Positions 6,618 through 57,120 of a stretch of 64,000 nt of DNA are shown piece by piece; position 1 is the stretch's first letter; the number at the start of each line of letters is the position of its first letter. Made by a program: the position numbers and the translations under genes. The DNA is from an uncultured Sphingobacteriales bacterium (GTDB lineage: Bacteria; Bacteroidota; Bacteroidia; CAILMK01; CAYYUA01). The DNA is taken from assembly GCA_964561545.1 (NCBI GenBank), contig CAZLQF010000003.1, positions 74,775-138,774 of the forward strand, read 5' to 3'. Under the pieces are notes generated by a model. That model made no database searches, had not been told where the DNA came from, and worked only from the letters and a program-made list of their open reading frames with translations.

Positions 6618-6914
6618 TTAATCAAGTTTATCAATTGTTTCTAAAGACCAAGCCTCAGGCTTCGCAGCAAATAATTTTTTAGTATCAGCCCAGGTTTCCT
6701 TAAATAGGTTCGATTGACGGTATCGTTCGAGCGATGCCTGATCCTCCCAATAACTGTATGTAAACAGGATCCGAGGGGCACTTTGATCTTTTAATAATTC
6801 CAGGTAATTGCAGCCTTCAAAAGCCCTGATCCTGGCTTTGCTGTTGTTAAAGATCTCCATAAATTCTGGAATGGCTTCTTCCCTGAATGTCATTTTTACA
6901 ACCCTAATTATCAT
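6618..6914 (-). CDS. ABM-domain (antibiotic biosynthesis monooxygenase-like) protein
   Basis: 98 aa, ferredoxin-like ABM pattern. Overlaps the upstream gene by 4 bp. Confidence 0.55.
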   Translation of the reverse strand: MIIRVVKMTFREEAIPEFMEIFNNSKARIRAFEGCNYLELLKDQSAPRILFTYSYWEDQASLERYRQSNLFKETWADTKKLFAAKPEAWSLETIDKLD

Positions 6915-16700: not shown

Positions 16701-19126
16701 TTGGGCCCACCTGCATCAGTTCTGTACAACAATTGATCTTTTGAAATATTGCCAAGGTTCCATAAAGTTGGGTTGACTTGATTAATGTCCGTAGCACTGT
16801 TACTTACAGCGACCACCCAACCACTGGCGTCTACTGCATCGTCTGAGACATTTTGAATTTCTATTGAGTCATCTAAGCCCAATGCGTTCTCGGTGATCAA
16901 TAAAGTCTTTTTGGGGCTTGAAGCGGCTTCTACATAAAAGGTGGTATCTTGGTTAAAAGCACTGGTTGTATAAGTATTGCCGGAGTTAGCGATAAAGTTT
17001 CCTCCTGTTGCACTGTCATACCAATGATAGAAGGATGTGTTGGATGAAGTTGTGAATTTGGGTGCTTTACCTTTACAGAAGGTATCATTATTAACCGTAG
17101 GTACTTGGGGTGTAAAAGGAACAAAGATCCCTGTGGAAAAGGTGTCATTGCTGAGGTTATTGTCTTCTTGAAGGCTGGTCCAGGTTTTAAAATTATAGTT
17201 GCTACCACCTTGAGAAAGGTCAATAGAATTATTAAACGTATAATTGATGGTGTCTCCGGGACTAAAAGGCGAATTAAGCATGTAGGATTCACTGACTGAA
17301 GTATTGCTACCCAATTGATAACCCACCGGCACCATTGTATTAGCAGGTATGGTTAGGTTACCCTTGTTTTCAAAAACAACTTTCACAGATTCATTGCTCG
17401 TTAAACCGCAAGTTGATTCAGGCTTAAGCAATTGGCTGATGCCTACATCACCAATTTCAGTAGTAAAGCTATCAACCGCGCAATTAGTGGCTTTACCCAC
17501 ACTGTTGAAAGGCACTACATTCCAATAATAGGTGGTATTCAGGGATAAATTTGAATTTGTAAGTGAATATTGAAAAGTAGTAAATGTATCTACCAAAGCT
17601 GCTTGACTTTGATTCTGTACATTGGTGAAGTTGCTATCCAAATACAACAAAAAGCCGTTTGCACTTCCTCCTGATATACCTGTATTAGTAGACCAATTCA
17701 ATGTAGAATCGACAAGGACGCCATTTGCATCAGCTGGAGGATATGATTTTATAGCACACAATGGGGGGCTGGTAGATTTGTATTGAATCTCAACGGCAAA
17801 ACGGAAGGGATTTGCCGGTGCAAAATCAAACCAATTTGGACTTCCTGATGGTGAGGTGAAGAAATAAGCTCCTTGCCTTGGCGGATTTTCATTCTGAAAT
17901 TTAAAAGTAACATTATTGGTGCCAACTTGCCTAACGCCAACAAAGAAATCACCACTTACCTGAACTGCGGAATCTAATTGAATCAGGGCTTGCCCGGCTA
18001 CTGTTTGTAAAGTATCCGTTTCGTAAAGCAAGGCACCGGGTGTTGCTTGAGCAGTCGCATCCCAAACACCAATTTGATAATCAAGGCCAGCATTATCAAA
18101 ATTGACATTAACCTGAATGATACTGTCGGCCGTTGGAGTATTGAAATTTGCTACAAAGTCGCCAGTAGCACCATTAAATCCTACTCCTCCCGGGCTCAAA
18201 GGTTGAGCAGGATACACATAAGATTCATTGTTATTGGTTACCTCCTGAACCACTGAAATAGCGTTATTGGTATTGTTAGAATCGTTTGGTACTGAAACCG
18301 TAACGGTATCTGTGCCTAAATTCGTTGGTGTAAAACTGGGATTGGTAAAGGTTACTGTGAAAATATCTCCAGAATTAAAAGTAGGAATATTTACGGTGCT
18401 TGTAAAATTATTTGCCCCAGTTATGTCAAGAGTTACAGGCACATTGGATTGGGATACACCATTGTTCACAACCCTTGCCTGTACTTCATGATCATTGTTG
18501 ACTCTGATTTTACCAAGGGTATAGTTATTGGTAACAGCTAAATCAGGTTTTAAAGTATCGTAAAGAAAATCATCAATGAATACCTCAAATGCACCAACTT
18601 GTAAATGGCGAAGGGCTATGTGTTCATTGTTACCAATCAAACTTGTATTGGTAAGGGGAACCGTGAACTCCTGAAAGCTCCCGTTTGGCGGATTGACTGT
18701 ATCTATAGGGATATAGCCTGCTATATTTGAAGTATCGGGCATAACCCCAACTTCTATTAGTTCATCACCGCTTGCATCTTCATCACTGGCTTTAAAAGTG
18801 ACAGATTTACCACCATTAGGTAGATCCGTAAATTTAGGCGAGATCAAAAAGGTTTGGTTGGCATCATTCAACTCTATAAGGTTAGGTGTTGTTGGGGGTG
18901 CTATTCCGGCATCATTGGTATTTACGGTCCTCGTACCAGAAGTTTCTACACCTCCATTCTGAACTATGTTCCAGCATGGACTAAGCGAAGGAGCTGTTAC
19001 ACTGTCGAATCCATGGCTATAGGGATAAGTATTACCGGAACAAGTGGTTTGCGCTTCAAGATTGAAAGCTAATAAACTTGAAACCACAAAAATCACTAAC
19101 GCTTGGGTAAAATTTTTAAATTCCAT
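13739..19126 (-). CDS. giant secreted cell-surface protein with about 8 PKD repeats, a lamin-tail-like domain, and a T9SS type A C-terminal sorting domain
   Basis: 1795 aa with an N-terminal signal peptide. Repeated W[DN]FG[DN]G ... YxxSGxYxVxL units (PKD). An LLITEN...IEIQNVSD...VDASGW segment (lamin-tail-like). C-terminal ~80 aa (YPNPFKQAINIDYELP...GVFILKL) match the Por secretion sorting domain (type A CTD). Confidence 0.85.
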   Translation of the reverse strand: MEFKNFTQALVIFVVSSLLAFNLEAQTTCSGNTYPYSHGFDSVTAPSLSPCWNIVQNGGVETSGTRTVNTNDAGIAPPTTPNLIELNDANQTFLISPKFTDLPNGGKSVTFKASDEDASGDELIEVGVMPDTSNIAGYIPIDTVNPPNGSFQEFTVPLTNTSLIGNNEHIALRHLQVGAFEVFIDDFLYDTLKPDLAVTNNYTLGKIRVNNDHEVQARVVNNGVSQSNVPVTLDITGANNFTSTVNIPTFNSGDIFTVTFTNPSFTPTNLGTDTVTVSVPNDSNNTNNAISVVQEVTNNNESYVYPAQPLSPGGVGFNGATGDFVANFNTPTADSIIQVNVNFDNAGLDYQIGVWDATAQATPGALLYETDTLQTVAGQALIQLDSAVQVSGDFFVGVRQVGTNNVTFKFQNENPPRQGAYFFTSPSGSPNWFDFAPANPFRFAVEIQYKSTSPPLCAIKSYPPADANGVLVDSTLNWSTNTGISGGSANGFLLYLDSNFTNVQNQSQAALVDTFTTFQYSLTNSNLSLNTTYYWNVVPFNSVGKATNCAVDSFTTEIGDVGISQLLKPESTCGLTSNESVKVVFENKGNLTIPANTMVPVGYQLGSNTSVSESYMLNSPFSPGDTINYTFNNSIDLSQGGSNYNFKTWTSLQEDNNLSNDTFSTGIFVPFTPQVPTVNNDTFCKGKAPKFTTSSNTSFYHWYDSATGGNFIANSGNTYTTSAFNQDTTFYVEAASSPKKTLLITENALGLDDSIEIQNVSDDAVDASGWVVAVSNSATDINQVNPTLWNLGNISKDQLLYRTDAGGPNPWGSNIVWDPNVPGWAIIIDDQGEVVDFVAWGWSQSNLQNFNPTINGFNISLNNQWSGGGTNACNIGSNVIRTGSLDDNDASNFTCGNPNVGAPNPQFNYPEVCTSSRVSANAISRDATTSFMEGSPFNGVSGNQTMANPDSACVGDTMTYKFPAPGNFSNSEYGNKWEISEIQFETMAGSGAQDTNFTPATTNADAQLMYVASPSEGNNLFEISVKVNLLSACDTSFTNYLYIEPGPQANFALADSCPVNLQFNNNSNLSSQMSTSSWDFGDGNTASNRSPVHTYGQSGNYDVELVLTSKQGCGADTATKNVQIAPKPQVDFAFDTTCQNQSITFNNNSSISTGSLSYQWNFGNGQTSTDINGTQTYNTATNRDVTLTATSNKGCSNSITKTVGVDPTPNTDFTILGSQYCQGDTLNFIDQTTNQGLSPNYEWNFGNGDASVVKDPNYAYSSSGNFNVALSVATDSGCIATQTKQISVDATPQVDFIVGNTSICESNPVQFNNATSFTGSGSVNYNWSFGDGTTDNQPNASNTYAVAGEYQVQLNAIPSQSACQNSLTKSILVGKKPSANFTAPNDACQGSTIQFNDNSQYQGNESLNYNWDLGNTTADAKDTSITYSTANDYTVTLTTTTDSTNCTDSKSQSLTIHADPEIVNLSNDGDCSNQLINFNTQVNYSGDSLAHTWDFGDGAFSNQPNPKHEFTSSGNYNVQYIAKSPTFSCADTISQNLNITESPSANFQTPQLICTDEAVTFTNSSQGGAGSLSYDWDFDNGQTSTDENPDVTFNNTGDLDISLVTTESNNNCTDTATKMVTVNETPNSNFSIDKNGSQVVMNTANNTYASYEWNFGDGSSSFEVNPVHTYDNSGQYPITLSVETDAGCSSQSTDTVDIATSIDQQLANSIDLATYPNPFKQAINIDYELPNAKTVKMQVVDQTGRTVSTLIDEEQAAGKHQIEFDPAKHGYSSGVFILKLWIDEQSEQQMLISIE

Positions 19127-33071: not shown

Positions 33072-34538
33072 ATGAAAAAGTACTTATTTGAGATAATTGT
33101 GTTTTTTAGCGGTGCTATTGTTATGATTTTAGAAGTGGTGGGGTCAAGGGTTTTAGCACCTTATTTAGGTACTTCAATATTCATTTGGACCAGTTTAATT
33201 GGTATTATCCTGGCAAGTTTAAGCCTGGGTTACTATTTAGGCGGTAGGCTTTCAGACCGATCTCCATCATTGGATGTACTTGCTACGATCCTGTTTTTTG
33301 CTGCCATTCTTGTTGGGATCACTACATACGTTAAAGCACCTTTTCTTAATTTTCTATTGTCCCAAACCTCTGATCTCAAATTAGGATCGGTTATAGCCAC
33401 GATCGTATTATTTGCATTACCCAGTACGCTGTTGGGGATGGTTTCGCCTTATTGCATTAAGTTAAGGCTCAAAAGCCTTAATACAAGCGGAAGCACTGTG
33501 GGTAATTTGTATGCCATATCAACTATTGGAAGTATTGCGGGAACCTTTTCTGCCGGCTTTTATTTGATCCCATGGCTTGGGACTACTACCATTTTGTTTC
33601 TTTTAGCCATCACGTTAATGATCTTGTCTATCCTTGCCTATGCCAAAAATCAATTTGTTTTGAGAACAGCCATTCTTTTTGGCCTAATCGTATTGGCCTA
33701 TACCTATGAGAGCCATTCAAGTATTATAGAGGTTGATACGAAATACAACAAGGTTTGGATTTATTCTCAAAAGCCCCATGATACAAGCCGCGAAAAGAAA
33801 ATAATGCAAGTAAATAGACAAAAAGCCTCAACTGTTTATACAGATACCAAAAGTACGGCCAGTGCATATGTCAAATATTTTGATCTGGCTAAATTTTTTA
33901 AACAAGATGTAAATAAAGCGCTAATAATAGGAGGGGCCGGTTACGAATACCCCCGCCATTTTTTAACCACTTTTCCTGATGCAACTATAGATGTTGTAGA
34001 AATCGATCCTAAGCTAACAGACCTGGCCAGGAGGCATTTTTATTTAAAAGACAATCCACGCTTGTCTATTCACCACATGGACGGACGTATCTTTTTAAAC
34101 CAAATGCAGCAGCAATATGATGTGATCTATGGCAACGCATTTAATTCAGCTGCTTCAGTTCCTTACCATTTAACAACCCTTGAAGCGGCCCGCCAGATGA
34201 AAGGGGGCTTAAAGGAAGATGGGGCAGCCTTTATCAATGTTGTTTCTTCATTAAAAGGAGTAAAAAGTAAGTTTTTAAGGGCTGAATATAAAACCTTTAA
34301 AGCTGTTTTCAACCATATTTTTTTATTTCCGGTCCAATACCCAGATGATCCTAAAAAAATTCAAAATATTATTATGGTTGCATTAAAAGGTAAAGCACCT
34401 GAATCCCTAAGCAGTAAAAATCCAAAATTTCAAAAATACCTTGATCATTATTGGAATGAACCCATTGAAACTGATTTGCCTGTTTTAACCGATAACCATG
34501 CCCCTGTTGATTATTACCTTGATGATATAACTGAGTAA
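33072..34538 (+). CDS. fused membrane domain / spermidine synthase-like (polyamine aminopropyltransferase family) protein
   Basis: About 6 N-terminal TM helices, then IIGGAGYEYPRHF...DVVEIDPKLTDLARRHF...DVIYGNAF class I MTase/spermidine synthase fold motifs. Confidence 0.7.
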   Translation: MKKYLFEIIVFFSGAIVMILEVVGSRVLAPYLGTSIFIWTSLIGIILASLSLGYYLGGRLSDRSPSLDVLATILFFAAILVGITTYVKAPFLNFLLSQTSDLKLGSVIATIVLFALPSTLLGMVSPYCIKLRLKSLNTSGSTVGNLYAISTIGSIAGTFSAGFYLIPWLGTTTILFLLAITLMILSILAYAKNQFVLRTAILFGLIVLAYTYESHSSIIEVDTKYNKVWIYSQKPHDTSREKKIMQVNRQKASTVYTDTKSTASAYVKYFDLAKFFKQDVNKALIIGGAGYEYPRHFLTTFPDATIDVVEIDPKLTDLARRHFYLKDNPRLSIHHMDGRIFLNQMQQQYDVIYGNAFNSAASVPYHLTTLEAARQMKGGLKEDGAAFINVVSSLKGVKSKFLRAEYKTFKAVFNHIFLFPVQYPDDPKKIQNIIMVALKGKAPESLSSKNPKFQKYLDHYWNEPIETDLPVLTDNHAPVDYYLDDITE

Positions 34539-34773: not shown

Positions 34774-37700
34774 ATGAATCTTTTAAAGAGAGTAGTTATT
34801 GGTTTAACGATGTTAATCGTTGCGGGGTTATTGAATGTATCAACAACCCAAGGCCAATGCACTAATATAGATTTCCAGGCTAATAAAACTAAGTCTTGTG
34901 TAAGTCAAATAACATTTAGTGCCACGGGCATTCCTGATAACAGCACCCTTTATTGGGATTTTGGAGAAGGAGAAATACAACGAAATGATACCTTCATTAA
35001 AGAATTTTTCTCAGAAAAAGGCTTTTATGATGTTGATCTTCGAGTGGTTTTGCCCAGTGGAAATGAGTGCAACATTCAAAAATCTGATTTTATTCAAATA
35101 GGGGTTAATCCCAATGCGGATTTTCAATTAAGTGATACATTGCTGTGCAATGGTTCGGGGAGTGTTACTTTTACGGATACTAATAAAGCCATCAACGAAA
35201 GAGATTGGGTAATCGGGGGACAGGATTACACCGATGCTGATTCTCAAATAACTCACAACTTTTCAAGTACAGGCTATAAAGACGCTTTTTTAATTACCAA
35301 AGATTCCTTGGGATGTAACTACTACTTACAAAAAGATTCTGTAGTTTATATACCACCTCAAGTCGGTGTTGATTTTAGTACCAGTGACGCCACTTCTGGT
35401 TGCACTCCGCTGAACAATATTCAAATCACCCCCAGCTTGAATCAAGGCGGACAAACTTTAACCCAATACAAATGGTACTTTCCTGGTTCAGATGTTGATT
35501 CTGACTCTAGCTCCAGTGATCCTGTACCTCCGGCAATATCTTATGGATCCCGAGGTACTTATGATGTTACATTCGAGGTCGAAACTGCCCTGAATTGTAC
35601 TTATTCAACCACAAAAAGCGGTTTCATACAAGCCGGAGATTCAATCGGGGTGGATTTTTCAACCAATACCGACAGTATTTGTTCTGGAGGCTCAGTAACA
35701 TTAGTCAATGAGTCGGATAGTTCAGAAGCAAATGCCCCTGGCGGTTTTAATTGGGGCCTTGATGGGGGTACTGTTGTTTCCTCATCAACCGATACGCAAG
35801 AGGTCAAATTCAATGCAACCGGTAGCAAAAATATAAGTTTGAATTATAGCGACAATGGCTGTTCTAATAACAAGACAGCAAATAATTTTATTTTTATAAA
35901 AGGTGTAACAGCCGATTTTAATGCCGATAGTATCCGAAATTGTCAACCTCCATTGACTACTTATTTCACCGATCAATCAACTTCCAACTCGGCTGGTTCC
36001 ATTACCAGTTATGAATGGACCTTTTTTGACAAAACGGGCGATAATGTGCTGGGAACCTCAACCAGTCAAAATGACAGTTTTACTTATGATTCTACAAACG
36101 GATTTGGCTCCTATGATGTAAAACTTAAAGTTACCCATTCCAACGGCTGTTCTGATTCAATAACTAAAACTGAGGTGGCAACCATTGAGGAACCGAGGGT
36201 GCAGTTTAATGCTGAACATTCAGCCGTTTGTCCTCAGGATACCGTTAAATTTTCAAATAACACGGAAGCCTATTCTAAAATTGAAGAAAATGAAAAATTT
36301 GATTGGTATGTTTACGATGGAGGGCTCAACTTAATTGATTCAGCTAAGAATCCAGAAGAGTTTGGTTACCGGGTGCATGATTCATTGGGTAATTATAGTT
36401 TCAAACTCATTACCCATGATGGTGTAGGTTGTAACGACACGCTATTTGATACCAATACAGTTCAAGTAAAAGAACCAGCCATCAATTATACAATTGGTCA
36501 AAAACAAGTTTGCAGTGGGGTAAGTGTTAATTTTACAGCTTCTGATTCCAGCAATCTTCCACTCGACTATACTTTTGATTTCAGCAATAAAGATACCTTA
36601 TTTTCGAGGAATGGGAGCGATGTTAATACTGCCTTCCCAGCCCCTGGAACTTATGACGTAAAATTGACAGGAAAAGCTGATACTTTTTGTACCGATTCCC
36701 TTTCAAAAACGGATAGTGTTAAGATTAATAGTTTAGCAGGTGATTTTTTAATAGATAGTACCAAGGGCTGCAGCCCGTTGACAACCAAAGTGAAGCCATC
36801 CAATTTTCAAATCAGCAATACCAACAACAATGATTCAATTCAATACACCTGGAGCGGATCTTCCGGAGTCAGTTTTTCAAATAAAACCGGAAAGGTAGAT
36901 ACCTCAAATATAGATTCCATTACTTCGGATGTTACCGTAACCGGTAACGGTAATTTTACCATCACGCTTGATGCTAATAATTTAGAAGGCTGTTCTCAAA
37001 CCATCAGTAAAACTAATGCCATTAGTTTGGGGACCAATGCAAGTTTTAATATGCCTTCCAATGCTTGTTTGAATGATACCGTACAACTGTCCAACCAATC
37101 GCCTATAGATGACAACTCTAAATGGCTTAATGACAACCCTAACCTAGAATTCCTCCCTTTTGATATCGCAACGGATCCTGAAATTTCTTTTTCCGACACT
37201 GGCACTTATGAAGTAACCCTTGCTTCTACTTCTCAATTAGGATGTAAGGACACGATAACAGATAGCATTACGGTCGAAAAAGTTACTGTAGATTTTTCAT
37301 CTCAGGATACGTTTTATACGTGTGCTCCTCAAATTGTTAAGTTTCAAGGTACAGCCAATAACGCAACGCAGTTCAGTTGGCATTTTGGGGATAATACTGG
37401 AACAGAAAATACGTCATCCCCCTCCAATAACCATCTGTATGAACAAAATACTGGCGGTACAGGGCAAGGTGGATTTGATGTTACGCTTATAGGAACTAAT
37501 AGCAATGGATGTAGTGATACCCTTGTTAGGGACAATTACATACAGATCATTGGTCCTGCTCCTGAATTTACCATGAATAACAATAAAGGTTGCGAGCCAC
37601 AAACCGTAACTTTTAATGATAGCAGCAAGAATGTTGAAACTTTTTATTTCGATTATGGAAGAGGGTTGCCAACTGATTCCAATGAAATCAACCCACGTAC

Positions 37701-39744
37701 TTATCAAACAAAACCTGATGTAGCTTATACTTCTTATAAACCTTCTATGTTCGCTTTTGGCCCATCCGGCTGCCCACCTCGTACGTTTGAACCTGAAGAT
37801 AGTATCGTTGCTTACAAAAGACCACGGGCACAATTTAATGCTGACCCCCACAAAGCATGTAATCCTGTAGAGGTCCAGTTTTCCGATTCCACAACTTTCG
37901 GTGCTGATTATGAATGGGATTTACAACATGATGGCACCTTTGATGATACTGTCAAAAACCCCACCCACACCTATAGTCAACCAGGAGATTATTCTGTATT
38001 TATGCGAGTAACCACGCAATTTGGTTGTCAGGATTCCATGCTACAAACAGATACAATTACTTCCTATCCAGTACCAGAAGCTGATTTTGAAACCGCTGAT
38101 ACTTTCCTTTGCTATGGCGAGGAACTTAATTTGTCCAACTTAACCACGTCAAATACTTCCATTACTGACTATCAATGGAATTTTGGAGATAATGGAGCTA
38201 CGGATGACACGTCTGATCAAGAAAACCCCGCTCCCTATTCCTATCAAGCCAAAGGTCCGGCTACAGTTTCCCTGGCAATTGAAGATGTTAATGCTTGTAA
38301 AGATACCATGGTCAAAACGGATTATGTATTAGTGGACCGGGAAATTTTACCACCAACTACTGAGTTAAATTATGTGAGTGTGGAAGATAGCAACCGAATT
38401 AACTTAAATTGGCAACAAAACCCAATTGATGATTTTGTTAAATATTTCATTAACCGTAAAGAGCCTTCAACTACTTTCAGTAGGTATGATTCGGTTCAAA
38501 ATCAAATAGATACAAGCTATTTAGACGTGCTTAGTAATCAATCTGCCAATTCTGGGCCTTTATGTTATACAATGGAAACATCTGATGTATGTCGAAATAT
38601 ATCCAATCCAGGTCAAGAACATTGTTCAATTCATTTAACGATTTCAAATCCAGCTTCGGCTCAAAACCTACTTGATTGGACGCCCTACGTTGGCTGGACC
38701 GATGTAGATCGCTATTCAATATACAGGAAAACAGAAGACAGTACTTTTTCCTTGTTGACAGAAGTATCGGGCGACTCTACGCAATACCTTGACGAACCGG
38801 TTTGTAATGAACGCTATTGTTATTACATCATCGCTCATCATCCCAGCGAGGATTTTACCTCTAAGAGTAACCAAGCTTGCAAAGAACCGCCCTATGAACT
38901 ACAAGAAGAACCGCTTGACCTGAACTATACCACAGTTTTAAATGATTCTTTTACCCAAACCTCTTGGGAGCCTGGTATCCAATCTAATATTGATGAATAT
39001 ATTATAGATCGGTATCAAAAGGAAAATGGTTGGCAACAAGAATATGCCACTACTGAATCAACTCAGTTTAGGGATCTACCAGCAATGGTTAATCGCTCAT
39101 CTTATCAATACCGGGTTACAGTAAAAGACCAATGTGGCAATGTAAGCGATCCGAGTAATGTTGGATCCTCTATCTATCTTCAAAGCATTAACAAAGAGGA
39201 TGCGGTCCAGCTCAAATGGACGCCCTATGAAAATTGGAAATCCGGTATCCAGAATTACACCATTAAAGCCTTAAAACAAAATGGCCAATTCGAGAAAATT
39301 GCTACTGTTTCAAGTGAGGATTCTGCCTACGTAGATGATGAATTGAAATTTGAAACCGCAGACGGCTATTGTTATAAGGTAGTAGCCAAACAGAAAGGCT
39401 TACAAAATGACTCTTCCGTATCTAATAGTTCTTGCACCATTATTCCAGCCAGGGTATTTATTCCTACAGGCTTTTCACCCAATGGCAATGGGCTTAACGA
39501 AACTTTTGGAGTCGTTGCAAAATCAGTCCGTAATCAAGCCGATGAAGATGGATTAGAATTTACCTTTAAAATCTTTAATCGCTGGGGACAAATGGTATTT
39601 CAAACCAACGATCTGGACGAAGAATGGGATGGAACGATTGATGGTGAACCCGCCCCAACGGGCACTTATCATTATTTCCTGGAGGCTTATGGAAAAGATG
39701 AACAGCAATTTTTTATTGATGGTAAAGTGAAACTGATTAGGTAG
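34774..39744 (+). CDS. giant secreted PKD-repeat protein with T9SS type B (gliding-motility-associated) C-terminal domain
   Basis: 1656 aa. Signal peptide. At least 10 PKD-like repeats (W.F.....YxxxGxYxVxL). Fn3-like modules near the C-terminus. Final ~90 aa (VFIPTGFSPNGNGLNETF...FKIFNRWGQMVFQTND...WDGT...GTYHYFLEAYGKD) match the CHU_C / type B T9SS sorting domain. Confidence 0.85.
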   Translation: MNLLKRVVIGLTMLIVAGLLNVSTTQGQCTNIDFQANKTKSCVSQITFSATGIPDNSTLYWDFGEGEIQRNDTFIKEFFSEKGFYDVDLRVVLPSGNECNIQKSDFIQIGVNPNADFQLSDTLLCNGSGSVTFTDTNKAINERDWVIGGQDYTDADSQITHNFSSTGYKDAFLITKDSLGCNYYLQKDSVVYIPPQVGVDFSTSDATSGCTPLNNIQITPSLNQGGQTLTQYKWYFPGSDVDSDSSSSDPVPPAISYGSRGTYDVTFEVETALNCTYSTTKSGFIQAGDSIGVDFSTNTDSICSGGSVTLVNESDSSEANAPGGFNWGLDGGTVVSSSTDTQEVKFNATGSKNISLNYSDNGCSNNKTANNFIFIKGVTADFNADSIRNCQPPLTTYFTDQSTSNSAGSITSYEWTFFDKTGDNVLGTSTSQNDSFTYDSTNGFGSYDVKLKVTHSNGCSDSITKTEVATIEEPRVQFNAEHSAVCPQDTVKFSNNTEAYSKIEENEKFDWYVYDGGLNLIDSAKNPEEFGYRVHDSLGNYSFKLITHDGVGCNDTLFDTNTVQVKEPAINYTIGQKQVCSGVSVNFTASDSSNLPLDYTFDFSNKDTLFSRNGSDVNTAFPAPGTYDVKLTGKADTFCTDSLSKTDSVKINSLAGDFLIDSTKGCSPLTTKVKPSNFQISNTNNNDSIQYTWSGSSGVSFSNKTGKVDTSNIDSITSDVTVTGNGNFTITLDANNLEGCSQTISKTNAISLGTNASFNMPSNACLNDTVQLSNQSPIDDNSKWLNDNPNLEFLPFDIATDPEISFSDTGTYEVTLASTSQLGCKDTITDSITVEKVTVDFSSQDTFYTCAPQIVKFQGTANNATQFSWHFGDNTGTENTSSPSNNHLYEQNTGGTGQGGFDVTLIGTNSNGCSDTLVRDNYIQIIGPAPEFTMNNNKGCEPQTVTFNDSSKNVETFYFDYGRGLPTDSNEINPRTYQTKPDVAYTSYKPSMFAFGPSGCPPRTFEPEDSIVAYKRPRAQFNADPHKACNPVEVQFSDSTTFGADYEWDLQHDGTFDDTVKNPTHTYSQPGDYSVFMRVTTQFGCQDSMLQTDTITSYPVPEADFETADTFLCYGEELNLSNLTTSNTSITDYQWNFGDNGATDDTSDQENPAPYSYQAKGPATVSLAIEDVNACKDTMVKTDYVLVDREILPPTTELNYVSVEDSNRINLNWQQNPIDDFVKYFINRKEPSTTFSRYDSVQNQIDTSYLDVLSNQSANSGPLCYTMETSDVCRNISNPGQEHCSIHLTISNPASAQNLLDWTPYVGWTDVDRYSIYRKTEDSTFSLLTEVSGDSTQYLDEPVCNERYCYYIIAHHPSEDFTSKSNQACKEPPYELQEEPLDLNYTTVLNDSFTQTSWEPGIQSNIDEYIIDRYQKENGWQQEYATTESTQFRDLPAMVNRSSYQYRVTVKDQCGNVSDPSNVGSSIYLQSINKEDAVQLKWTPYENWKSGIQNYTIKALKQNGQFEKIATVSSEDSAYVDDELKFETADGYCYKVVAKQKGLQNDSSVSNSSCTIIPARVFIPTGFSPNGNGLNETFGVVAKSVRNQADEDGLEFTFKIFNRWGQMVFQTNDLDEEWDGTIDGEPAPTGTYHYFLEAYGKDEQQFFIDGKVKLIR

Positions 39745-39859: not shown

Positions 39860-40996
39860 TTATTGGCTATTAATTATAGTTTGCCCAATATTGAAGGTTC
39901 CGAACTTTAATTGATCGTATGTATTAACTAAGGCAATTTGGAGGTTCATGGGTTCACTAAGGATGGGAAAAGCAGCCTTTAATCCCAATTCTCTAATTAG
40001 TTTTGGATCAACCTCAATGATGCCTCCCAAAGCAATTACCGGCTTATCATATTTTTGGGCTAATTGACTAACGCCATTAATTACTTTGCCATATAGGCTC
40101 TGCCGGTCAATCTTGCCTTCCCCGGTAATGACGTAGTCGGATTCCATAACTTGAGTTTCAAACTTGGTTTGTTCCATGACCAGGTCAATGCCTTTTTCCA
40201 GTGTTCCATTTAAAAAAGCGGCAGCTCCGGCTCCCAGTCCACCGGCAGCGCCAGCCCCTTGTAAATCTTTTACATCTTTTCCTAAAGCACTTTTGATTTG
40301 TTGGGCAAGGTTTCCCATACCTTTTTCCAGCGCTTCAACGTGCTGCGGGGTAGCTCCTTTTTGCGGGGCAAATATATGGGCAGCGCCTTTTGGCCCGGTT
40401 AACGGATTGACTACATCGCAAGCTACGCGAATTGTTACTCCGGAAAGATCTACTTTTAGATGCCGGTCATCAATGGTGGCAATTTTGCTCAAGTTTGCTC
40501 CTTTTCCTTCCTGTTCATTTCCTTGCTCGTCCATAAACTGATAACCCAGTGCTTGCGCCATTCCCATCCCACCATCACAAGTAGCACTGCCGCCTAAGCC
40601 CAAAATGATCTCATTCACTTGTTGATTTTGGATGGCATTAAGGATCAATTCGCCAGTTCCATAAGTAGAAGTATAATAACAATTTCGGTCCTCCGGTTTT
40701 AGCAATTGCAAGCCTGAGGCTTGTGCCATTTCAATGAAAGCTGTTTTGCCGTCTGCGGAAATGCCATATTCTGCCTCGATCAATCTGTTAAGGGGATCAT
40801 GTGCTTGAATTTTGATGGAATGGCCTTTGGCATGAAAGGTTAGGATAGAAGCCAGGCCTTCGCCACCATCCGACAACGGGAAAAGGACTGTGTCTGTATT
40901 AGGGTTGGCTTCCAAAATGCCTTCCTGAATGGCTTGGCAAACGGTGATGGCATCTAAAGCATCTTTGAATTTATCTGGTGCTATTAGGATCTTCAT
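39860..40996 (-). CDS. glxK: glycerate kinase
   Basis: 378 aa. N-terminal KILIAPDKFKDAL, PLSDGGEGL and TGEGKID motifs are diagnostic of the GlxK/GarK family. Confidence 0.85.
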   Translation of the reverse strand: MKILIAPDKFKDALDAITVCQAIQEGILEANPNTDTVLFPLSDGGEGLASILTFHAKGHSIKIQAHDPLNRLIEAEYGISADGKTAFIEMAQASGLQLLKPEDRNCYYTSTYGTGELILNAIQNQQVNEIILGLGGSATCDGGMGMAQALGYQFMDEQGNEQEGKGANLSKIATIDDRHLKVDLSGVTIRVACDVVNPLTGPKGAAHIFAPQKGATPQHVEALEKGMGNLAQQIKSALGKDVKDLQGAGAAGGLGAGAAAFLNGTLEKGIDLVMEQTKFETQVMESDYVITGEGKIDRQSLYGKVINGVSQLAQKYDKPVIALGGIIEVDPKLIRELGLKAAFPILSEPMNLQIALVNTYDQLKFGTFNIGQTIINSQ

Positions 40997-41504
40997 GGGT
41001 GAAATGTTGAAATTAAAGTTTTAAAAATTTTAATTCATACAATTTTTGCGAAATAAGGTATATGTTACCCTTGGCTTAAGCCAGGGGGTTTGAGTTAGTA
41101 AACATGGGGCTTTAGCCTTTAATACGGATTGCCTTAAGTGCTAAAGCCCAATACATTTGCTCTTTTAAACCAAACCTGAACTTAGGGCAAGCAATAATTC
41201 TTTTATAAAACTGTTAATTTTAAGTAGCCATTTTAGCGGAAGCAAATTTTAAATGGTTTAAAAGATGAACCTTAGTTTTAAAATTCACTTATGATCCCCC
41301 TCTCCCGGCTGGAAAGAGGAGCGTATTCTTCTTTTACTGGAAGAAGGTTTAGGTTCAGGGCCATGAACTCAATAATTGCTCAAGTTTCTTAAGAACTTTC
41401 CTTTATCGTATTTGCTTTAAGTCGGCTTTGCATGAAGCTTAACTTCCTGTCAAAAAAAAAAATAGAAGATTTTGTATTTACGGGATTTCTAAAATTGCAA
41501 GGTC

Positions 41505-42455
41505 TCAAAGATTCACAACATTTTTGGAACTACCCTCCATAAACCCATGAATGTTATCTACCACAATATCCATCAAGCGCTGTCGGGATTCTATAGTGGC
41601 CCAGGCATTGTGAGGGGTAATAATGCAGTTTTTGGCTTCAAACATGGGATTGGCTTCTTGTGGAGGTTCTTTTGACAACACATCCAATCCAGCTCCAGCA
41701 ATCCACTCATGGTTCAGGGCCTGCTTAAGGGCTTCTTCATTGATCAAGCCTCCTCTTGCCGTATTGAGCAAAAAAGCTGATGACTTCATGGTTTGCAACA
41801 ATTCACGGTTGACAAATTGCTCGTTATCATTGGTCAAAGGGCAATGGAGCGATACTACATCACTGCTCTCAAAAAGCTCCGGAATTTGAACAAATTCCAC
41901 GCCTTCTTTGGCATCCCTTTCCGGATGTTTATGGTGGGCCTTGACTTTCATACCCAATCCCATGGCGAGGTCTGCTACAGCCTGTCCAATCCTGCCGAGG
42001 CCAACGATTCCCATTGTTTTATCAGCCAACTCGGTTAAAGGAAATTTAGCAAGGCTAAAGTCTTGACGCCAAGCCCCCTTGCGAACAACTTCATCGTGAT
42101 CAGCAATACGGTTGGTTAATTCGAGTAATAAACCCAATGTATGCTGCGCTACGGAATGCGTAGCATAACCGGAAGAATTGGTTACAGGAATATTCCGGGC
42201 TTTGGCAGCATCTACATCTACAATATCAAAACCAGTAGCCAAAACGCCAATGTATTGTAAATCAGGTAACCCATGGATGGTTGAAGCATCCAAAGGGGTT
42301 TTGTTCGTTAAAAGGATTGAAGCACCCTGACCTCTATCCATGACCTTTGAGCTGGGCGTGCGGTCATAAATTTCTACTTCACCCAGCTTTTTTAGGGGTT
42401 TCCAGCTTAAGTCGCCTGGATTTAGCGTATAACCGTCTAAAACCACGATTTTCAT
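41505..42455 (-). CDS. D-isomer-specific 2-hydroxyacid dehydrogenase (glycerate dehydrogenase/hydroxypyruvate reductase-like)
   Basis: 316 aa. NAD-binding GIVGLGRIGQAVA. Catalytic R/E/H arrangement (NTARG...ITPH). Lies next to glycerate kinase. Confidence 0.8.
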   Translation of the reverse strand: MKIVVLDGYTLNPGDLSWKPLKKLGEVEIYDRTPSSKVMDRGQGASILLTNKTPLDASTIHGLPDLQYIGVLATGFDIVDVDAAKARNIPVTNSSGYATHSVAQHTLGLLLELTNRIADHDEVVRKGAWRQDFSLAKFPLTELADKTMGIVGLGRIGQAVADLAMGLGMKVKAHHKHPERDAKEGVEFVQIPELFESSDVVSLHCPLTNDNEQFVNRELLQTMKSSAFLLNTARGGLINEEALKQALNHEWIAGAGLDVLSKEPPQEANPMFEAKNCIITPHNAWATIESRQRLMDIVVDNIHGFMEGSSKNVVNL

Positions 42456-42615: not shown

Positions 42616-43308
42616 ATGAATATCAAGTTTATAGGTACAGGTGGTGCGTTTGATTATGAATATGGCAATTCATCAGCCATTCTTGATTTTAAAGGCCATA
42701 CCTATTTGATAGATTGTGGCCAGGATATCTACCCAAGGTTACGGTCCAAAGATTTCATAGATCCGATTGATCATGTTTTGATCACGCATTTTCATGCAGA
42801 TCATGTAGGCAGCTTGTCAACCTTTATACTTCATCATCACTTCTTTAGTAAGGGCAAACAACTTAAGTTGCTATATCCAGACGCAGACTTTAAGGATCAG
42901 CTTTATGAATACTTGAAATTTTCACTTCAAACCCCAGAGAAATTCATCGTTTTCATTCCTGTTAAAAATCACCAGGGCGTTAATTTTGTCGATACTTTCG
43001 GGCTTCATGTGCCAGGAATGCAAACTTATGCGTATTACTTCCAAGATGATGAGGAAGCACTTGTTTACTCTGGTGATTTAGGAGATTGTGATTACTTGTT
43101 CGACAATTTACCAGAGTTTGATAAACCTAAGAAGCGCGTATTTCACGACATCAATTTTGATCCCCCGGTCGGCCCCCACACTTTTTATGAGGACCTCATC
43201 CCTTACCAAGAGGATTTCGAGATTTATGGATATCATTGTGATCCTTCTGAAAATGTAAAAGAAAATCCAGTTCCCCTGGTGTATGACCACCCTGAGCTGC
43301 AATTATAA
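42616..43308 (+). CDS. MBL-fold metallo-hydrolase
   Basis: HFHADHVG (HxHxDH) motif, with downstream His/Asp ligands. Confidence 0.7.
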   Translation: MNIKFIGTGGAFDYEYGNSSAILDFKGHTYLIDCGQDIYPRLRSKDFIDPIDHVLITHFHADHVGSLSTFILHHHFFSKGKQLKLLYPDADFKDQLYEYLKFSLQTPEKFIVFIPVKNHQGVNFVDTFGLHVPGMQTYAYYFQDDEEALVYSGDLGDCDYLFDNLPEFDKPKKRVFHDINFDPPVGPHTFYEDLIPYQEDFEIYGYHCDPSENVKENPVPLVYDHPELQL

Positions 43309-43465: not shown

Positions 43466-44629
43466 ATGACATCATCGAAATACGATAAACGCGGTGTTTC
43501 TGCATCAAAAACCGAGGTGCATGGTGCCATTAAAAATCTTGACAAAGGGTTATTTCCCAATGCATTTTGTAAAATACTGCCCGATGTTTTGAGCAATGAT
43601 CCAAAATATTGCAGCATCATGCATGCTGATACAGCAGGCACTAAGACCTCCCTGGCTTATTTATATTGGCAGGAAACAGGAGATGATGCTATATGGAAAG
43701 GCATTATGCAGGACGCCATTGTTATGAATCTGGATGATCTCGCTTGCGTTGGGGCTATGGATGATGTTATTTTATCCAACACGATCGGACGCAACAAATC
43801 ACTAATACCCGGAGCGGTTTTAGAAGCACTAATTGAAGGGGGGCTTCAATTCATTGATAAAATGCGGGATCAAGGGGTTCATATTTACCATTCAGGAGGA
43901 GAAACTGCTGATGTAGGTGATGTGGTTCGCACCATAGATGTCGGTTTTACTGCATATACCCGCTTAGCTCGAAATCAAGTAATTGAAAACAATATTAAGG
44001 CCGGAGACGTGATTGTAGGTTTGGCATCGGATGGACAAGCCGTTTATGAAGATGCTTATAACAGTGGCATTGGTAGCAATGGGCTTACTTTTGCACGCCA
44101 TGAAGTATTAGCGCATAGCTACGCAGCGAATTACCCAGAAAGCTATGATCCTCATCTGGATCAGGAGGTCGTTTACAACGGGAAATATAAATTAACCGAT
44201 AAAACAACCTCAGGCTCATCGGTAGGTGCGTTGTTGCTGGCACCAACCCGAACTTATTTACCCGTTTTAAAGCAGATTTTTGAAACCTTACATGAGCAAA
44301 TACATGGCATTATTCATTGCACAGGTGGCGGACAAACCAAAATATTGAATTTTGTTAAGGATCTTCATGTAATCAAAAACAACCTTTTTAAGCCTCCTGA
44401 GGTATTTAACCTAATCCAGAGCGTATCAAATACTGACTTGAAGGAAATGTACCAGGTATTCAACATGGGCCACCGAATTGAGCTTTATGTACCTGAAAGT
44501 AAAGCTACAGAAGTGATCAATATTGCAAGGGAACAAGGGGTAGATGCCAAAATTATTGGTCATTGTGAAGCTTTTAGGGATGGCAAAAAACTAACCTTAG
44601 ATACAGAAGTTGGGAAATTTACTTTTTAA
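43466..44629 (+). CDS. purM: phosphoribosylformylglycinamidine cyclo-ligase (AIR synthetase), Bacteroidota long form
   Basis: 387 aa. GGETA, LLAPTRTY, HCTGGGQTK and FNMGHRIE motifs conserved in the PurM family. Confidence 0.75.
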   Translation: MTSSKYDKRGVSASKTEVHGAIKNLDKGLFPNAFCKILPDVLSNDPKYCSIMHADTAGTKTSLAYLYWQETGDDAIWKGIMQDAIVMNLDDLACVGAMDDVILSNTIGRNKSLIPGAVLEALIEGGLQFIDKMRDQGVHIYHSGGETADVGDVVRTIDVGFTAYTRLARNQVIENNIKAGDVIVGLASDGQAVYEDAYNSGIGSNGLTFARHEVLAHSYAANYPESYDPHLDQEVVYNGKYKLTDKTTSGSSVGALLLAPTRTYLPVLKQIFETLHEQIHGIIHCTGGGQTKILNFVKDLHVIKNNLFKPPEVFNLIQSVSNTDLKEMYQVFNMGHRIELYVPESKATEVINIAREQGVDAKIIGHCEAFRDGKKLTLDTEVGKFTF

Positions 44630-44799
44630 CTTTCCCAACAATTTTGGGTTATTACTACTGCAGGTGCCTAAAATTTGATTTAGGGCGAAGTTGCCTCAGG
44701 CTCAAGAATACCCAGCTATATATTCTAAATAAGGAAAGGATTTTATCTGACTGGACATTCAAGGATATATAACCAGGTTTTGATAATTATTTAAATTAC

Positions 44800-44807
44800 T
44801 TACCTTT
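44800..44807 (+). promoter_or_regulatory. candidate Bacteroidota -7 promoter box (TACCTTTG) upstream of the glycine betaine methyltransferase pair
   Basis: TAnnTTTG match 63 bp upstream of the ATG at 44871. The -33 TTG spacing is not ideal. Confidence 0.25.
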
Positions 44808-44870
44808 GCATTTAGTTTTAATTACGGCTTAAAGCCAGACAAAAAATTTTTATTCATAAAAAACGCTACT

Positions 44871-45695
44871 ATGGCAGATTCTGAAAACAAAACCCACGGT
44901 AATAATCCAGTTAGTGATATACCAGGTACGGACCATTACAAATTGGAATACGTTCATGATTTTGTAGAAAAATGGGACGATTTAATTGACTGGGATGCCC
45001 GCGGTAAAGGGGAAGGTGATTTCTTTATTAAAGAGTTGAAAAAACGGGGAAAAGTTAAAGTCCTTGACTCAGCAACGGGTACGGGGTATCATTCCTTAAA
45101 GCTCATGGATGAAAACTTTGAAGTGGACAGCGCAGATGGCAGTCCCAACATGTTAGCAAAGGCTTTTAATAATGCCAGAGAGAATGGATTAATTCTTAGA
45201 ACCATTCATGCTGACTGGCGTTGGCTTAACCGCGATGTTCACAATAAATACGATGCCATTATTTGCTTAGGCAATTCTTTTACCCACCTTTTTTCAGAAA
45301 ACGACAGGCGTAAAACGTTGGCAGAATTTTATTCAGCCTTAAAACACGATGGCATTCTAATCCTTGATCAAAGAAACTATGGTGCTATATTGGACCATGG
45401 CTTCTCCACCAAGCATACCTATTACTACGCCGGGGAAAACATTAAAGCAGAGCCGGAGTACATAGACGAAGGATTGATGCGCTTCCGCTATGAATTTCCG
45501 GATGATAGTGTTTATCATCTCAATTTCTTCCCATTAAGGGAGGAATATACCAAGCGACTAATGAAAGAAGTAGGCTTCCAGACCGTAACTACTTATGGTG
45601 ATTTTAAAGAGACCTACAGTGCTGAGGAACCCGATTACCTGATCCACATTGCGGAAAAATCCTACATTGAAGAATTAGTAGATACTGATAAATAA
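44871..45695 (+). CDS. glycine/sarcosine N-methyltransferase-like class I SAM methyltransferase
   Basis: 274 aa. KVLDSATGTGYHS SAM motif I. The length and an N-terminal region (YVHDFVEKWDDLIDWDARGKGEG) resemble halophile GSMT. Sits directly upstream of an SDMT-like gene. Confidence 0.7.
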   Translation: MADSENKTHGNNPVSDIPGTDHYKLEYVHDFVEKWDDLIDWDARGKGEGDFFIKELKKRGKVKVLDSATGTGYHSLKLMDENFEVDSADGSPNMLAKAFNNARENGLILRTIHADWRWLNRDVHNKYDAIICLGNSFTHLFSENDRRKTLAEFYSALKHDGILILDQRNYGAILDHGFSTKHTYYYAGENIKAEPEYIDEGLMRFRYEFPDDSVYHLNFFPLREEYTKRLMKEVGFQTVTTYGDFKETYSAEEPDYLIHIAEKSYIEELVDTDK

Positions 45696-45708
45696 AAAAG
45701 GATCCCTT

Positions 45709-46539
45709 ATGAAATCTGAAGAAATAGCACAAACAGCGAAGAATTATTACGATAGTGAAGATGCTGACAATTTTTATTTCAACATTTGGGGTGGGGAAGA
45801 CATCCACGTGGGTTGGTACCAAAGTGACAGTGAGCCCATCCTGGATGCAAGTCACCGGACTGTGCGGAAAATGGCAGAAAGGCTGCCTAAAATTGATGAA
45901 AGCACTAGAATCCTTGATATTGGGGCTGGCTATGGTGGGTCCGCCAGATATTTAGCATCCAACTATGGTAGCCCGGTTGATTGCCTTAACATCAGTGAGA
46001 AGGAGAACGAAAAGAATGAAAAGAAAAATAAGGAACAAGGCCTTGACCATTTAATTGATGTTCAACAAGGCAATTTTGAAGACCTTCCCTATGAAGACAA
46101 TTCATACGATATCGTATGGTGCCAGGATTCTATTCTGCATAGTGGTAACAAGGAGCTCGTTTTTAAGGAAGTAGCACGGGTGTTAAAACCGGGCGGTCAC
46201 TTTATATTTACTGATCCAATGCAGGCTGACGATTGTCCTGAAGGTGTCTTAGGGCCAGTCCTCAAGCGAATCCACCTGGATTCAATGGGATCGGTAGAGA
46301 AATACCGTAAAATGGCTAATGATCTTGGAATGGATGAAATTGAAACGATTGAACAGTCAGAATTGCTTCCCAAACATTATGGAAGAGTTTTGGAAGAATT
46401 GAAGAAAAATGAGGACATGCTCCAAGGCAAAGTAAGCCAGGAATATATTGATCACATGAAAGAAGGCTTAGGCCATTGGGTAGAAAAAGGCAACAATGGG
46501 TACCTTAACTGGGGCATTCTTCATTTCAAACTGCAATAA
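45709..46539 (+). CDS. sarcosine/dimethylglycine N-methyltransferase-like SAM methyltransferase
   Basis: 276 aa. N-terminal YYDSEDADNFYFNIWGGEDIHVGWY closely resembles the SDMT/DMT signature. ILDIGAGYGGSARYLA SAM motif. Confidence 0.75.
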   Translation: MKSEEIAQTAKNYYDSEDADNFYFNIWGGEDIHVGWYQSDSEPILDASHRTVRKMAERLPKIDESTRILDIGAGYGGSARYLASNYGSPVDCLNISEKENEKNEKKNKEQGLDHLIDVQQGNFEDLPYEDNSYDIVWCQDSILHSGNKELVFKEVARVLKPGGHFIFTDPMQADDCPEGVLGPVLKRIHLDSMGSVEKYRKMANDLGMDEIETIEQSELLPKHYGRVLEELKKNEDMLQGKVSQEYIDHMKEGLGHWVEKGNNGYLNWGILHFKLQ

Positions 46540-46587: not shown

Positions 46588-46626
46588 AAAAAAAAGCTCA
46601 TGTAATTGACATGAGCTTTTTTTATT
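46588..46626. terminator. bidirectional intrinsic terminator between convergent SDMT and korB genes
   Basis: A8 tract, then an 8-bp perfect stem AGCTCATG/CATGAGCT with a 7-nt loop, then T7. Functional in either orientation. Confidence 0.7.
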
Positions 46627-55818: not shown

Positions 55819-57120
55819 TTGAGTAACCGAATTAATGATAAAAACCGCTACCACCACTGGCTTTTTATGGCTGGCCTCATGCTGGCAGGGGAGAGCATTT
55901 ACATGCTGCCCTATATGCGCAAAACCTTCCAAACCAGCATGGAGGAAGTTTTTGAGGTTTCAAGTACCGAAATAGGCTTGCTGAACACCATGTTCGGGAT
56001 CCTGGCTGTCATCTCCTATTTCTCGAGCGGTTGGCTGGCCGATCGTTTTTCAGCTCGCAAACTTTTGACCTTTTCTTTGGTAGCTACCAGCATCGGTGGC
56101 TTCTTCATGCTCACATTACCATCCTATCTTCTACTCTTGACCATCCATGCATTTTGGGGCATTACTTCCATTCTTACTTTTTGGGCAGCATTGATCAAGG
56201 CTACCCGAGGATGGGGACGTCCTGATAATCAAGGTACCAGCTTTGGATTGCTGGATGCTGGAAGGGGAGCAGTGGCTGCAGTTTTAGCTTCTTTAGCAAC
56301 CACTTTATTTGCTTACACCGATTCTACCCAGGAAGGACTTCAGGGTGTGCTTTTAGTTTATTCTACGGCACCCTTACTGTCGGGTTTGATCATTTGGTGG
56401 GTGGTGCCGGAAAATTTGTACAAAGAATATCAAGGATCGATCAACAAAGATGATCAATACAAACCGGTCAAGGGAGCGCACTGGTACCGGTTTAAGCGGG
56501 CATTTGAAAAACCAGAGGTCTGGCTGCTGGCGCTGATTATTTTCTGTTCCTACATATTGTATTTGGGAACTTTTGACCTACCGGCATTTGCAGAAAAAAG
56601 TCATGATCAAACCAAAACTTTTGGAGCTGTGCTGGGGTCCATTCGCGATTGGATGCGCCCCATTGCAGCTTTGGGAGCTGGCCTTTTAGCAGATAAAATA
56701 AGGCCATCTAAGACGGTTGGTGGTGTTTTTGCTGTGTTGATCTTAACCTTTGGCTCCCTTTTCTTGGTTAATCCTTCCTTTGGAGGCCTTGGAATCCTAT
56801 GGACTCAGGTCATCCTGGCCGGCCTGGCTGTATTTGCTTTGCGAGGCGTTTATTTTGCTATGCTTGAGGAAATTGGTATTCCCTATACGCTAACGGGAAC
56901 CACCGTTGGTATTGTCTCGTTTGTTGGATTTACGCCCGATATATTCGGCCACTTGCTTTCAGGTTGGTTTGTAGATACTTATGATGGAACCATGGGTTAC
57001 CACTATTATTTTGCTTTTCTGGCATGCATAGCAGCGCTTGGCCTATTCGCTACTTGGGCCATTCGTTTAAGGTCTGCTTCAAAATCGGTAATAAAAGAAC
57101 GGTCCAATAATGGATCGTGA
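55819..57120 (+). CDS. MFS transporter
   Basis: 433 aa, about 12 TM helices, MFS-like loop motifs. Start codon uncertain (TTG at 55819; first ATG is 16 codons in). Confidence 0.7.
   Translation: MSNRINDKNRYHHWLFMAGLMLAGESIYMLPYMRKTFQTSMEEVFEVSSTEIGLLNTMFGILAVISYFSSGWLADRFSARKLLTFSLVATSIGGFFMLTLPSYLLLLTIHAFWGITSILTFWAALIKATRGWGRPDNQGTSFGLLDAGRGAVAAVLASLATTLFAYTDSTQEGLQGVLLVYSTAPLLSGLIIWWVVPENLYKEYQGSINKDDQYKPVKGAHWYRFKRAFEKPEVWLLALIIFCSYILYLGTFDLPAFAEKSHDQTKTFGAVLGSIRDWMRPIAALGAGLLADKIRPSKTVGGVFAVLILTFGSLFLVNPSFGGLGILWTQVILAGLAVFALRGVYFAMLEEIGIPYTLTGTTVGIVSFVGFTPDIFGHLLSGWFVDTYDGTMGYHYYFAFLACIAALGLFATWAIRLRSASKSVIKERSNNGS

Follow-up and report, generated by a model that had tools for sequence, protein, structure and literature searches.

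The gsmt-sdmt locus and its candidate transcription signals

The window analyzed here, the whole 64,000-nucleotide stretch of contig CAZLQF010000003.1 from an uncultured Sphingobacteriales bacterium, contains two adjacent genes on the + strand whose products we predict to be the paired methyltransferases of glycine betaine synthesis. The first open reading frame (ORF), gsmt (ORF1, 44871-45695), encodes a predicted glycine/sarcosine N-methyltransferase (GSMT) of 274 amino acids (aa), and the second, sdmt (ORF2, 45709-46539), a predicted sarcosine/dimethylglycine N-methyltransferase (SDMT) of 276 aa. Both are matched by Pfam Methyltransf_25/11/31, which marks them as class I S-adenosylmethionine (SAM) methyltransferases, and motif I reads VLDSATGTG in ORF1 and ILDIGAGYGG in ORF2. 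An earlier note on this DNA, made without database searches, had described just such a tandem pair; its coordinates and sizes are exact, and Pfam agrees with its family assignment. The spacer between the genes (45696-45708, + strand) is only 13 nt long and carries no promoter or terminator signal, and a terminator scan finds no + strand terminator-like site between gsmt and sdmt. This tight, signal-free spacing implies that the two genes are co-transcribed. Overall, we consider it very probable that gsmt and sdmt form a two-gene operon for the de novo synthesis of glycine betaine from glycine by three SAM-dependent N-methylations. This is the pathway that the earlier note had proposed, and it is now backed by curated-model scores, 61-62% identity to known pathway enzymes, active-site residues and conserved pairing of the genes.

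The signals that appear to govern transcription of the pair lie on either side of it. A candidate promoter of the Bacteroidota type is found by pattern match on the + strand at 44779-44808, where a -33 TTTG (44779-44782) is followed by an 18-nt spacer and a -7 element, TACCTTTG, at 44801-44808. The element ends 62 nt before the gsmt ATG, and it is the TAnnTTTG candidate that had been noticed upstream of the pair. Across the window, the full pattern shows no significant enrichment, with 7 matches against 3.7 expected and 13 of 100 shuffles reaching 7. What makes this candidate credible is thus not window-wide enrichment, but conservation and context. The full motif is kept at the same place 5' of gsmt in the near-identical metagenome contig L081 and in the more distant loci L001 and L002, and in the latter two the remainder of the promoter spacer has diverged. 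In addition, TAnnTTTG is about 2.5 times as dense in the ORF-free DNA of the window as in its ORFs, and 12 of 41 genes have it upstream in sense orientation, versus 6 in the antisense control.

At the other end, the scan and direct reading both identify a bidirectional intrinsic terminator at 46589-46623, a 15-pair hairpin of the form AAAAAAAGCTCATGT-AATTG-ACATGAGCTTTTTTT with an A-run and a T-run on its flanks. It sits between sdmt and the convergent korB, which ends at 46683 on the - strand, and agrees with the clean bidirectional terminator described earlier. Promoter and terminator together enclose exactly gsmt and sdmt. Transcription most likely starts just 3' of TTTG-N18-TACCTTTG, and would proceed through gsmt and then sdmt before halting at the hairpin. 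Two other kinds of signal were considered and set aside. An Rfam scan of the whole window at gathering thresholds returned no family, and hence no riboswitch or leader RNA 5' of gsmt. The sigma-70 consensus, which is not the one that matters in Bacteroidota, is matched 6 times against 6.6 expected from shuffles.

ORF1 as a predicted glycine/sarcosine N-methyltransferase

ORF1 scores 454.2 bits against NF051855, the NCBIfam equivalog model for GSMT, where the cut-off is 350, and its residues 8-265 span model positions 2-258 of 259. It also matches the crystallized GSMT of the archaeon Methanohalophilus portucalensis (MpGSMT, PDB 5gwx) with an E-value of 2e-112 and 61% identity. The structure of that enzyme offers a detailed basis for comparison. 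Its substrate contacts are Arg167, Tyr206, Asn134, His138 and Met218, its methyl-transfer channel is lined by Tyr26 and Tyr185 with the associated H1-helix residue Trp34, and its betaine feedback pocket comprises Asp35, Ile38, Asp39, Trp40, Asn100 and His104, among which Asp35, Trp40 and Asn100 are conserved in GSMTs but not in the glycine N-methyltransferases (GNMTs) (PMC5146677).

Ten of the eleven positions mapped between ORF1 and MpGSMT are identical and invariant in 122 homologs; Met218 is the sole exception. Thus, the residues that bind the carboxylate and amine (R168, Y207 and N135) are kept and invariant in all 122 sequences, the channel tyrosines Y27 and Y186 and the H1-helix W35 are conserved, and the cofactor contacts R44 (Arg43 of MpGSMT) and L133 (Leu132) are present. 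In the betaine pocket, three residues are invariant (D36, W41 and N101) and two more (I39 and D40) are conserved, with His104 of MpGSMT replaced by N105 in a naturally variable column. Taken together, the cleared cut-off, the identity to MpGSMT and an active site retained but for Met218 support the membership of ORF1 in the GSMT family, as had been suggested earlier from its size and organization.

ORF2 as a predicted sarcosine/dimethylglycine N-methyltransferase

For ORF2 the best NCBIfam family by far is NF041675 (SDMT), at 407.9 bits. The protein is 61.9% identical over 265 residues to the SDMT of M. portucalensis (MpSDMT), and it aligns over its full length (residues 4-274) with the crystallized Galdieria SDMT, PDB 2o57 (E 8e-71). 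Together with the 61-62% identity of ORF1 and ORF2 to MpGSMT and MpSDMT, this match settles the folds of both proteins. All four proposed acceptor-binding residues are present as D140, H144, P170 and M171 and are invariant in 121 sequences; they are equivalent to Asp142, His146, Pro172 and Met173 of MpSDMT, and thereby to Asp158 and His162 of the Galdieria enzyme (GsSDMT) and Pro171 and Met172 of the dimethylglycine N-methyltransferase (DMT) of Aphanothece halophytica (ApDMT). The N-terminal block YYDSEDADNFYFNIWGGEDIHVGWY, residues 13-37, follows the pattern YYD(x)5FY(x)2WGGEDIHVG, and the 55-residue N-terminus of ORF2 finds only 2o57 among 177,635 PDB sequences (E 5e-11; next best 0.6). This block, which the earlier note had called a hallmark of these enzymes in halophiles, is therefore reasonably diagnostic. 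Together with the identity to MpSDMT and the four retained substrate residues, it supports the assignment of ORF2 to the SDMT family.

Membership in this family leaves room for a narrower enzyme. In Aphanothece halophytica and Synechococcus WH8102 the characterized homologs accept only dimethylglycine (PMC3176816, Table 1), and ORF2 might likewise be a DMT, in which case ORF1 would carry out steps 1 and 2. As a marker to separate the two types, the Pro/Met pair has no discriminating power, since it is common to DMT and SDMT alike. Nonetheless, we regard a DMT-type ORF2 as quite unlikely. Its closest characterized relative, MpSDMT, uses sarcosine as well as dimethylglycine, and cyanobacterial sequences are absent both from the best 80 genome loci and from the 120 listed protein matches.

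A more radical alternative is that both enzymes N-methylate another small amine or amino acid, such as beta-alanine or proline, rather than glycine. The many generic Pfam matches of class I SAM methyltransferases would allow for it, but the pair is 61-62% identical to enzymes of the glycine pathway, the glycine/sarcosine contacts of the crystal structure are kept, ORF1 passes an equivalog-level model, and the next-best NCBIfam families score only 35 bits for ORF1 and 70 bits for ORF2. We consider a different substrate extremely improbable.

Proposed pathway and the evidence against it

The pathway that we propose runs from glycine through sarcosine and dimethylglycine to betaine and would consume three SAM. 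GSMT would catalyze step 1 and probably step 2. The glycine carboxylate would be held by Arg168 and Tyr207 and the amine by Asn135, and the SAM methyl group would pass through a channel formed by Tyr27, Tyr186 and Asn135. SDMT would bind sarcosine and dimethylglycine via Asp140, His144, Pro170 and Met171, and would catalyze step 3 and probably step 2. GSMT is probably subject to feedback inhibition by betaine at the conserved N-terminal pocket (Asp36, Trp41 and Asn101). Homology does not tell exactly how the steps are divided, since three different splits exist among characterized systems: GSMT with SDMT in Halorhodospira and Methanohalophilus, GSMT with DMT in Aphanothece and Synechococcus, and a glycine-only methyltransferase (GMT) with SDMT in Thioalkalivibrio (PMC3176816, PMC9062515).

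Several observations weigh against this proposal. At 407.9 bits, ORF2 is formally below the NF041675 equivalog cut-off of 550. We considered this shortfall as an argument against SDMT and rejected it, because the MpSDMT sequence (P0075) reaches only 493 bits and fails the cut-off too; nine other homologs score 348-493. Recombinant MpSDMT methylates sarcosine as well as dimethylglycine (PMC3176816, Table 1), so a cut-off that leaves it out appears too strict to weigh against ORF2. Two negative results concern the pathway as a whole. The searched literature yielded no biochemical characterization of it in any Bacteroidota, and the window's 41 ORFs of at least 150 aa include no SAM synthetase, no S-adenosylhomocysteine (SAH) hydrolase and no recognizable betaine transporter, in contrast to the clusters of Methanohalophilus and the picocyanobacteria. 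A major facilitator superfamily transporter is encoded at 55819-57120, with no substrate assigned.

The remaining point concerns the active site of ORF1 itself, where Phe219 replaces Met218 of MpGSMT, a residue that lines the pocket for the sarcosine methyl group. In MpGSMT this side pocket is formed by His138 and Met218; in ORF1 the histidine is kept as H139 and the methionine is not. Of 122 aligned sequences, 21 have phenylalanine here (20 of the 120 homologs listed, plus the query), as do 3 of 71 loci; its carriers are the window, its closest metagenome homologs and the loci L001, L002 and L007, all close Bacteroidota relatives. All other loci, those of Saprospiraceae included, have Met. 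The substitution thus allows for a different division of labor, in which ORF1 is glycine-only and ORF2 alone carries out steps 2 and 3. Such a split exists in nature in the TvGMT and TvSDMT of Thioalkalivibrio versutus (PMC9062515). In addition, rat GNMT, which is glycine-only, has the aromatic Tyr242 aligned with F219 by profile, albeit in a segment that adjoins an insertion and is less certain.

At the same time, His139 and every other substrate residue of ORF1 are unchanged, and control of specificity by Met versus Phe at this position is conjecture. Furthermore, the Ectothiorhodospiraceae-type loci, which are related to the family of TvGMT, all have Met, and the TvGMT phenotype is probably caused in some other way. 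We therefore view a glycine-only ORF1 as unlikely, and Phe219 as no more than a slight hint of a first enzyme that prefers glycine. The same tentative standing applies to its evolutionary corollary, in which a Bacteroidota-specific Phe219 subclade would have turned glycine-only independently, giving a strict GMT for step 1 followed by an SDMT for steps 2 and 3. If true, Phe219 would be a single-residue candidate for a specificity switch in the GSMT family. On balance, we continue to favor GSMT plus SDMT, with ORF1 acting on glycine and probably on sarcosine.

Physiological role

Regardless of how the steps are divided, the betaine product is most likely a compatible solute. This osmoprotective role is inferred from the tie between the pathway and salt tolerance that is seen in every characterized system. 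The proteins of the window have a median isoelectric point of 6.0 (41 ORFs); they are not strongly acidic, which fits a compatible-solute rather than a salt-in strategy.

One might instead suppose that betaine is made here mainly for non-osmotic purposes, as a thermo- or cryoprotectant or as a methyl or nitrogen currency of the community. Transcription of Mpgsmt-sdmt does rise under heat and cold stress (PMC3176816), betaine is traded in marine communities (PMC12324868), and the window's ORFs of at least 150 aa include no salt-related genes linked to the operon. Set against these points, the uniform association of the characterized systems with salt tolerance leads us to judge a mainly non-osmotic role very unlikely. 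The sample names of the homologs point the same way. Many homolog-bearing metagenome-assembled genomes (MAGs) carry names that read as salt lakes or soda lakes, and a saline or marine lifestyle of the window's host is therefore plausible. The searched literature makes no mention of the accessions JGI 3300010232, SRP185896 and ERZ27230162, which were looked up for a habitat.

Three further observations were made in the window. A SAM hydroxide adenosyltransferase of the SAM-cleaving family PF01887/PF20257 is encoded 37 kb from the operon (6911-7684, - strand); apart from the two methyltransferases, no other clearly SAM-cleaving enzyme was identified in the window. A glycerate kinase and a D-2-hydroxyacid dehydrogenase of the glycerate/hydroxypyruvate type precede the operon by a few kb (39860-42455, - strand), and could be part of serine/glycine-related carbon flow. 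Finally, a 488-aa protein encoded at 33072-34538 (+ strand) has a C-terminal spermidine-synthase-like domain (a weak match to PF01564) behind a long unannotated N-terminal part.

Distribution and descent

A scan in which each GTDB species was represented by one genome yielded 388 stretches that encode relatives of ORF2, and the best 80 loci were examined. In 70 of these 80, from many phyla, sdmt is directly preceded by a GSMT gene on the same strand. At least 10 of the 80 are Bacteroidota genomes with the pair; they comprise Sphingobacteriales MAGs, Saprospiraceae, Phaeodactylibacter, Weeksellaceae and Catalinimonas, to which named protein matches add Schleiferiaceae, Flavobacteriales, Cyclobacteriaceae, Roseihalotalea and 'Bacteroidetes bacterium SW_11_45_7'. 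The pathway had earlier been called uncommon in Bacteroidota. Our data bear this out insofar as its distribution in the phylum is patchy, but with this many Bacteroidota genomes among the best loci it is not rare. An eleventh Bacteroidota locus, in a Great Salt Lake Bacteroidetes bin (L055:5458-6285), has an SDMT homolog without a GSMT within its 8.9-kb contig; the ORFs on either side of it are unrelated.

Among the best 80 loci, the nearest genomes by identity (77-81%) are a pair of uncultured 'Sphingobacteriales' MAGs, and rough neighbor-joining trees (no bootstrap) place the window with Sphingobacteriales MAGs and the other Bacteroidota in clades of their own. The near-identical metagenome contigs L081 and L083 keep the gene order of the window. 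None of the window's flanking genes recurs in the more distant L001 and L002; this indicates that the location of the cassette is not fixed across the wider group. Recent horizontal acquisition was considered and rejected: the GC content of the cassette (0.40-0.42) matches its flanks, the genomic context is shared with L081 and L083, and the trees group it with Bacteroidota-derived sequences. Overall, the pair seems to have resided in the Bacteroidota for a long time, albeit with a patchy distribution.

The host of the window is, as judged from its sequence, a member of a Bacteroidia lineage without close cultured relatives; its KorA shows 72-74% identity to its nearest matches and 61-65% to those from named Bacteroidia and Chitinophagaceae. 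Two giant proteins with multiple PKD domains, of 1795 aa (13739-19126, - strand) and 1656 aa (34774-39744, + strand), carry Por_Secre_tail and CHU_C, C-terminal sorting domains of the type IX secretion system (T9SS). Both proteins are probably T9SS cargo or adhesins, and their sorting domains support a Bacteroidota origin.

Outside the phylum, a different arrangement is seen in five loci from Thermodesulfobacteriota/Dehalococcoidia MAGs (L016:9983-14753, and also L012, L015, L034 and L044). These encode an SDMT homolog with 57-59% identity to ORF2 and no GSMT in the flank examined, and a 2-hydroxyacid dehydrogenase homolog lies 3' of the SDMT homolog. In L016 this neighbor, a SerA-like phosphoglycerate dehydrogenase of 528 aa, precedes a corrinoid-binding protein and a methyltransferase of the MttB family, an order that suggests a link between the synthesis of betaine or another quaternary amine and corrinoid-dependent demethylation.

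Neighboring genes

The genes that flank the operon are unrelated to the betaine pathway: besides the glycerate kinase and 2-hydroxyacid dehydrogenase mentioned above, they encode a metallo-beta-lactamase (MBL)-fold protein, a PurM-like protein, KorAB, a nitroreductase and a heptose epimerase. Directly upstream of gsmt, at 43466-44629 (+ strand), lies the gene of the PurM-like protein, a 387-aa AIR-synthase-related protein whose position is kept in L081 and L083. It scores 104 bits against a purM equivalog cut-off of 236, and is probably not a bona fide PurM. Two genes upstream of gsmt, at 42616-43308 (+ strand), is that of the 230-aa MBL-fold protein, which has only weak RNase Z-like NCBIfam matches. 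Its counterpart in L081 matches Pfam PF23023 (Anti-Pycsar Apyc1-like cyclic-nucleotide phosphodiesterase) and Lactamase_B.

Significance

The gsmt-sdmt pair appears to be a new, uncharacterized example of a well-known textbook pathway, and nothing in its sequence gives reason to expect different chemistry. Only two points are mildly new, a Phe219 variant specific to the clade and an NCBIfam cut-off for SDMT that is overly strict. The latter has practical consequences. The cut-off leaves out all ten homologs tested, and the NCBI records of these SDMT homologs (e.g. P0075, P0046 and P0044, from Methanohalophilus/Methanohalobium) are named 'methyltransferase domain-containing protein', so that the pathway is easily missed; JGI annotation already gives close homologs glycine betaine pathway names. 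With the prediction made here, an uncultured Bacteroidia lineage would join the de novo makers of betaine, as opposed to organisms that rely on choline or imported betaine. The potential of Bacteroidota for osmoadaptation and metabolite exchange might then be read from metagenomes.

Comparison with known systems

The system most fully comparable to the window pair is that of M. portucalensis, MpGSMT (PDB 5gwx/5hii) and MpSDMT, which has the same gene order and 61% and 62% identity to ORF1 and ORF2, respectively. The catalytic and substrate residues are common to both systems save Met218, as are the key residues of the betaine feedback pocket, and co-transcription of gsmt and sdmt has been shown experimentally in Methanohalophilus (PMC3176816). 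The differences from MpGSMT are Phe219 for Met218 and Asn105 for His104, and the candidate promoter of the window is of the Bacteroidota type. The M. portucalensis cluster also has genes for SAH hydrolase and SAM synthetase directly upstream, where the window has none.

The GSMT and DMT of Aphanothece halophytica and Synechococcus WH8102 represent the same pathway and pairing, and the equivalents of Arg169 (GSMT) and Pro171/Met172 (DMT) are conserved in the window pair. In the cyanobacterial clusters, however, the second enzyme is dimethylglycine-only and a proVWX betaine transporter adjoins, whereas no transporter is adjacent in the window. TvGMT and TvSDMT of Thioalkalivibrio versutus again share the pathway and the pairing, but their first enzyme is glycine-only (PMC9062515), and Phe219 is the sole hint that ORF1 might behave likewise.

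Two eukaryotic proteins extend the comparison. The SDMT of Galdieria sulphuraria (2o57) has the N-terminal YYD..D.FY..WGGEDIHVG block and Asp158/His162 (Asp140/His144 of ORF2) in common with ORF2, from which it differs by short insertions. Mammalian GNMT (PDB 1bhj/1xva) belongs to the fold family of ORF1 (E 2e-18 with a single sequence, 1e-30 with a profile), but its match reaches 70 bits versus 379 bits for GSMT. It takes methylation no further than sarcosine, and its role is regulatory, not that of an osmolyte maker. The residues of the betaine pocket are absent from it according to the MpGSMT structural study (PMC5146677).

The canonical bacterial split, and the one that we have adopted as our model for the window, is that of Halorhodospira halochloris (Nyyssola et al. 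2000/2001), where GSMT acts on glycine and sarcosine and SDMT on sarcosine and dimethylglycine (PMC3176816). Two Halorhodospira MAG loci (L068 and L079) belong to another phylum and have Met at the pocket position where the window has Phe219. Nonetheless, their gene order is that of the window, with about 65% identity for GSMT and about 57% for SDMT.

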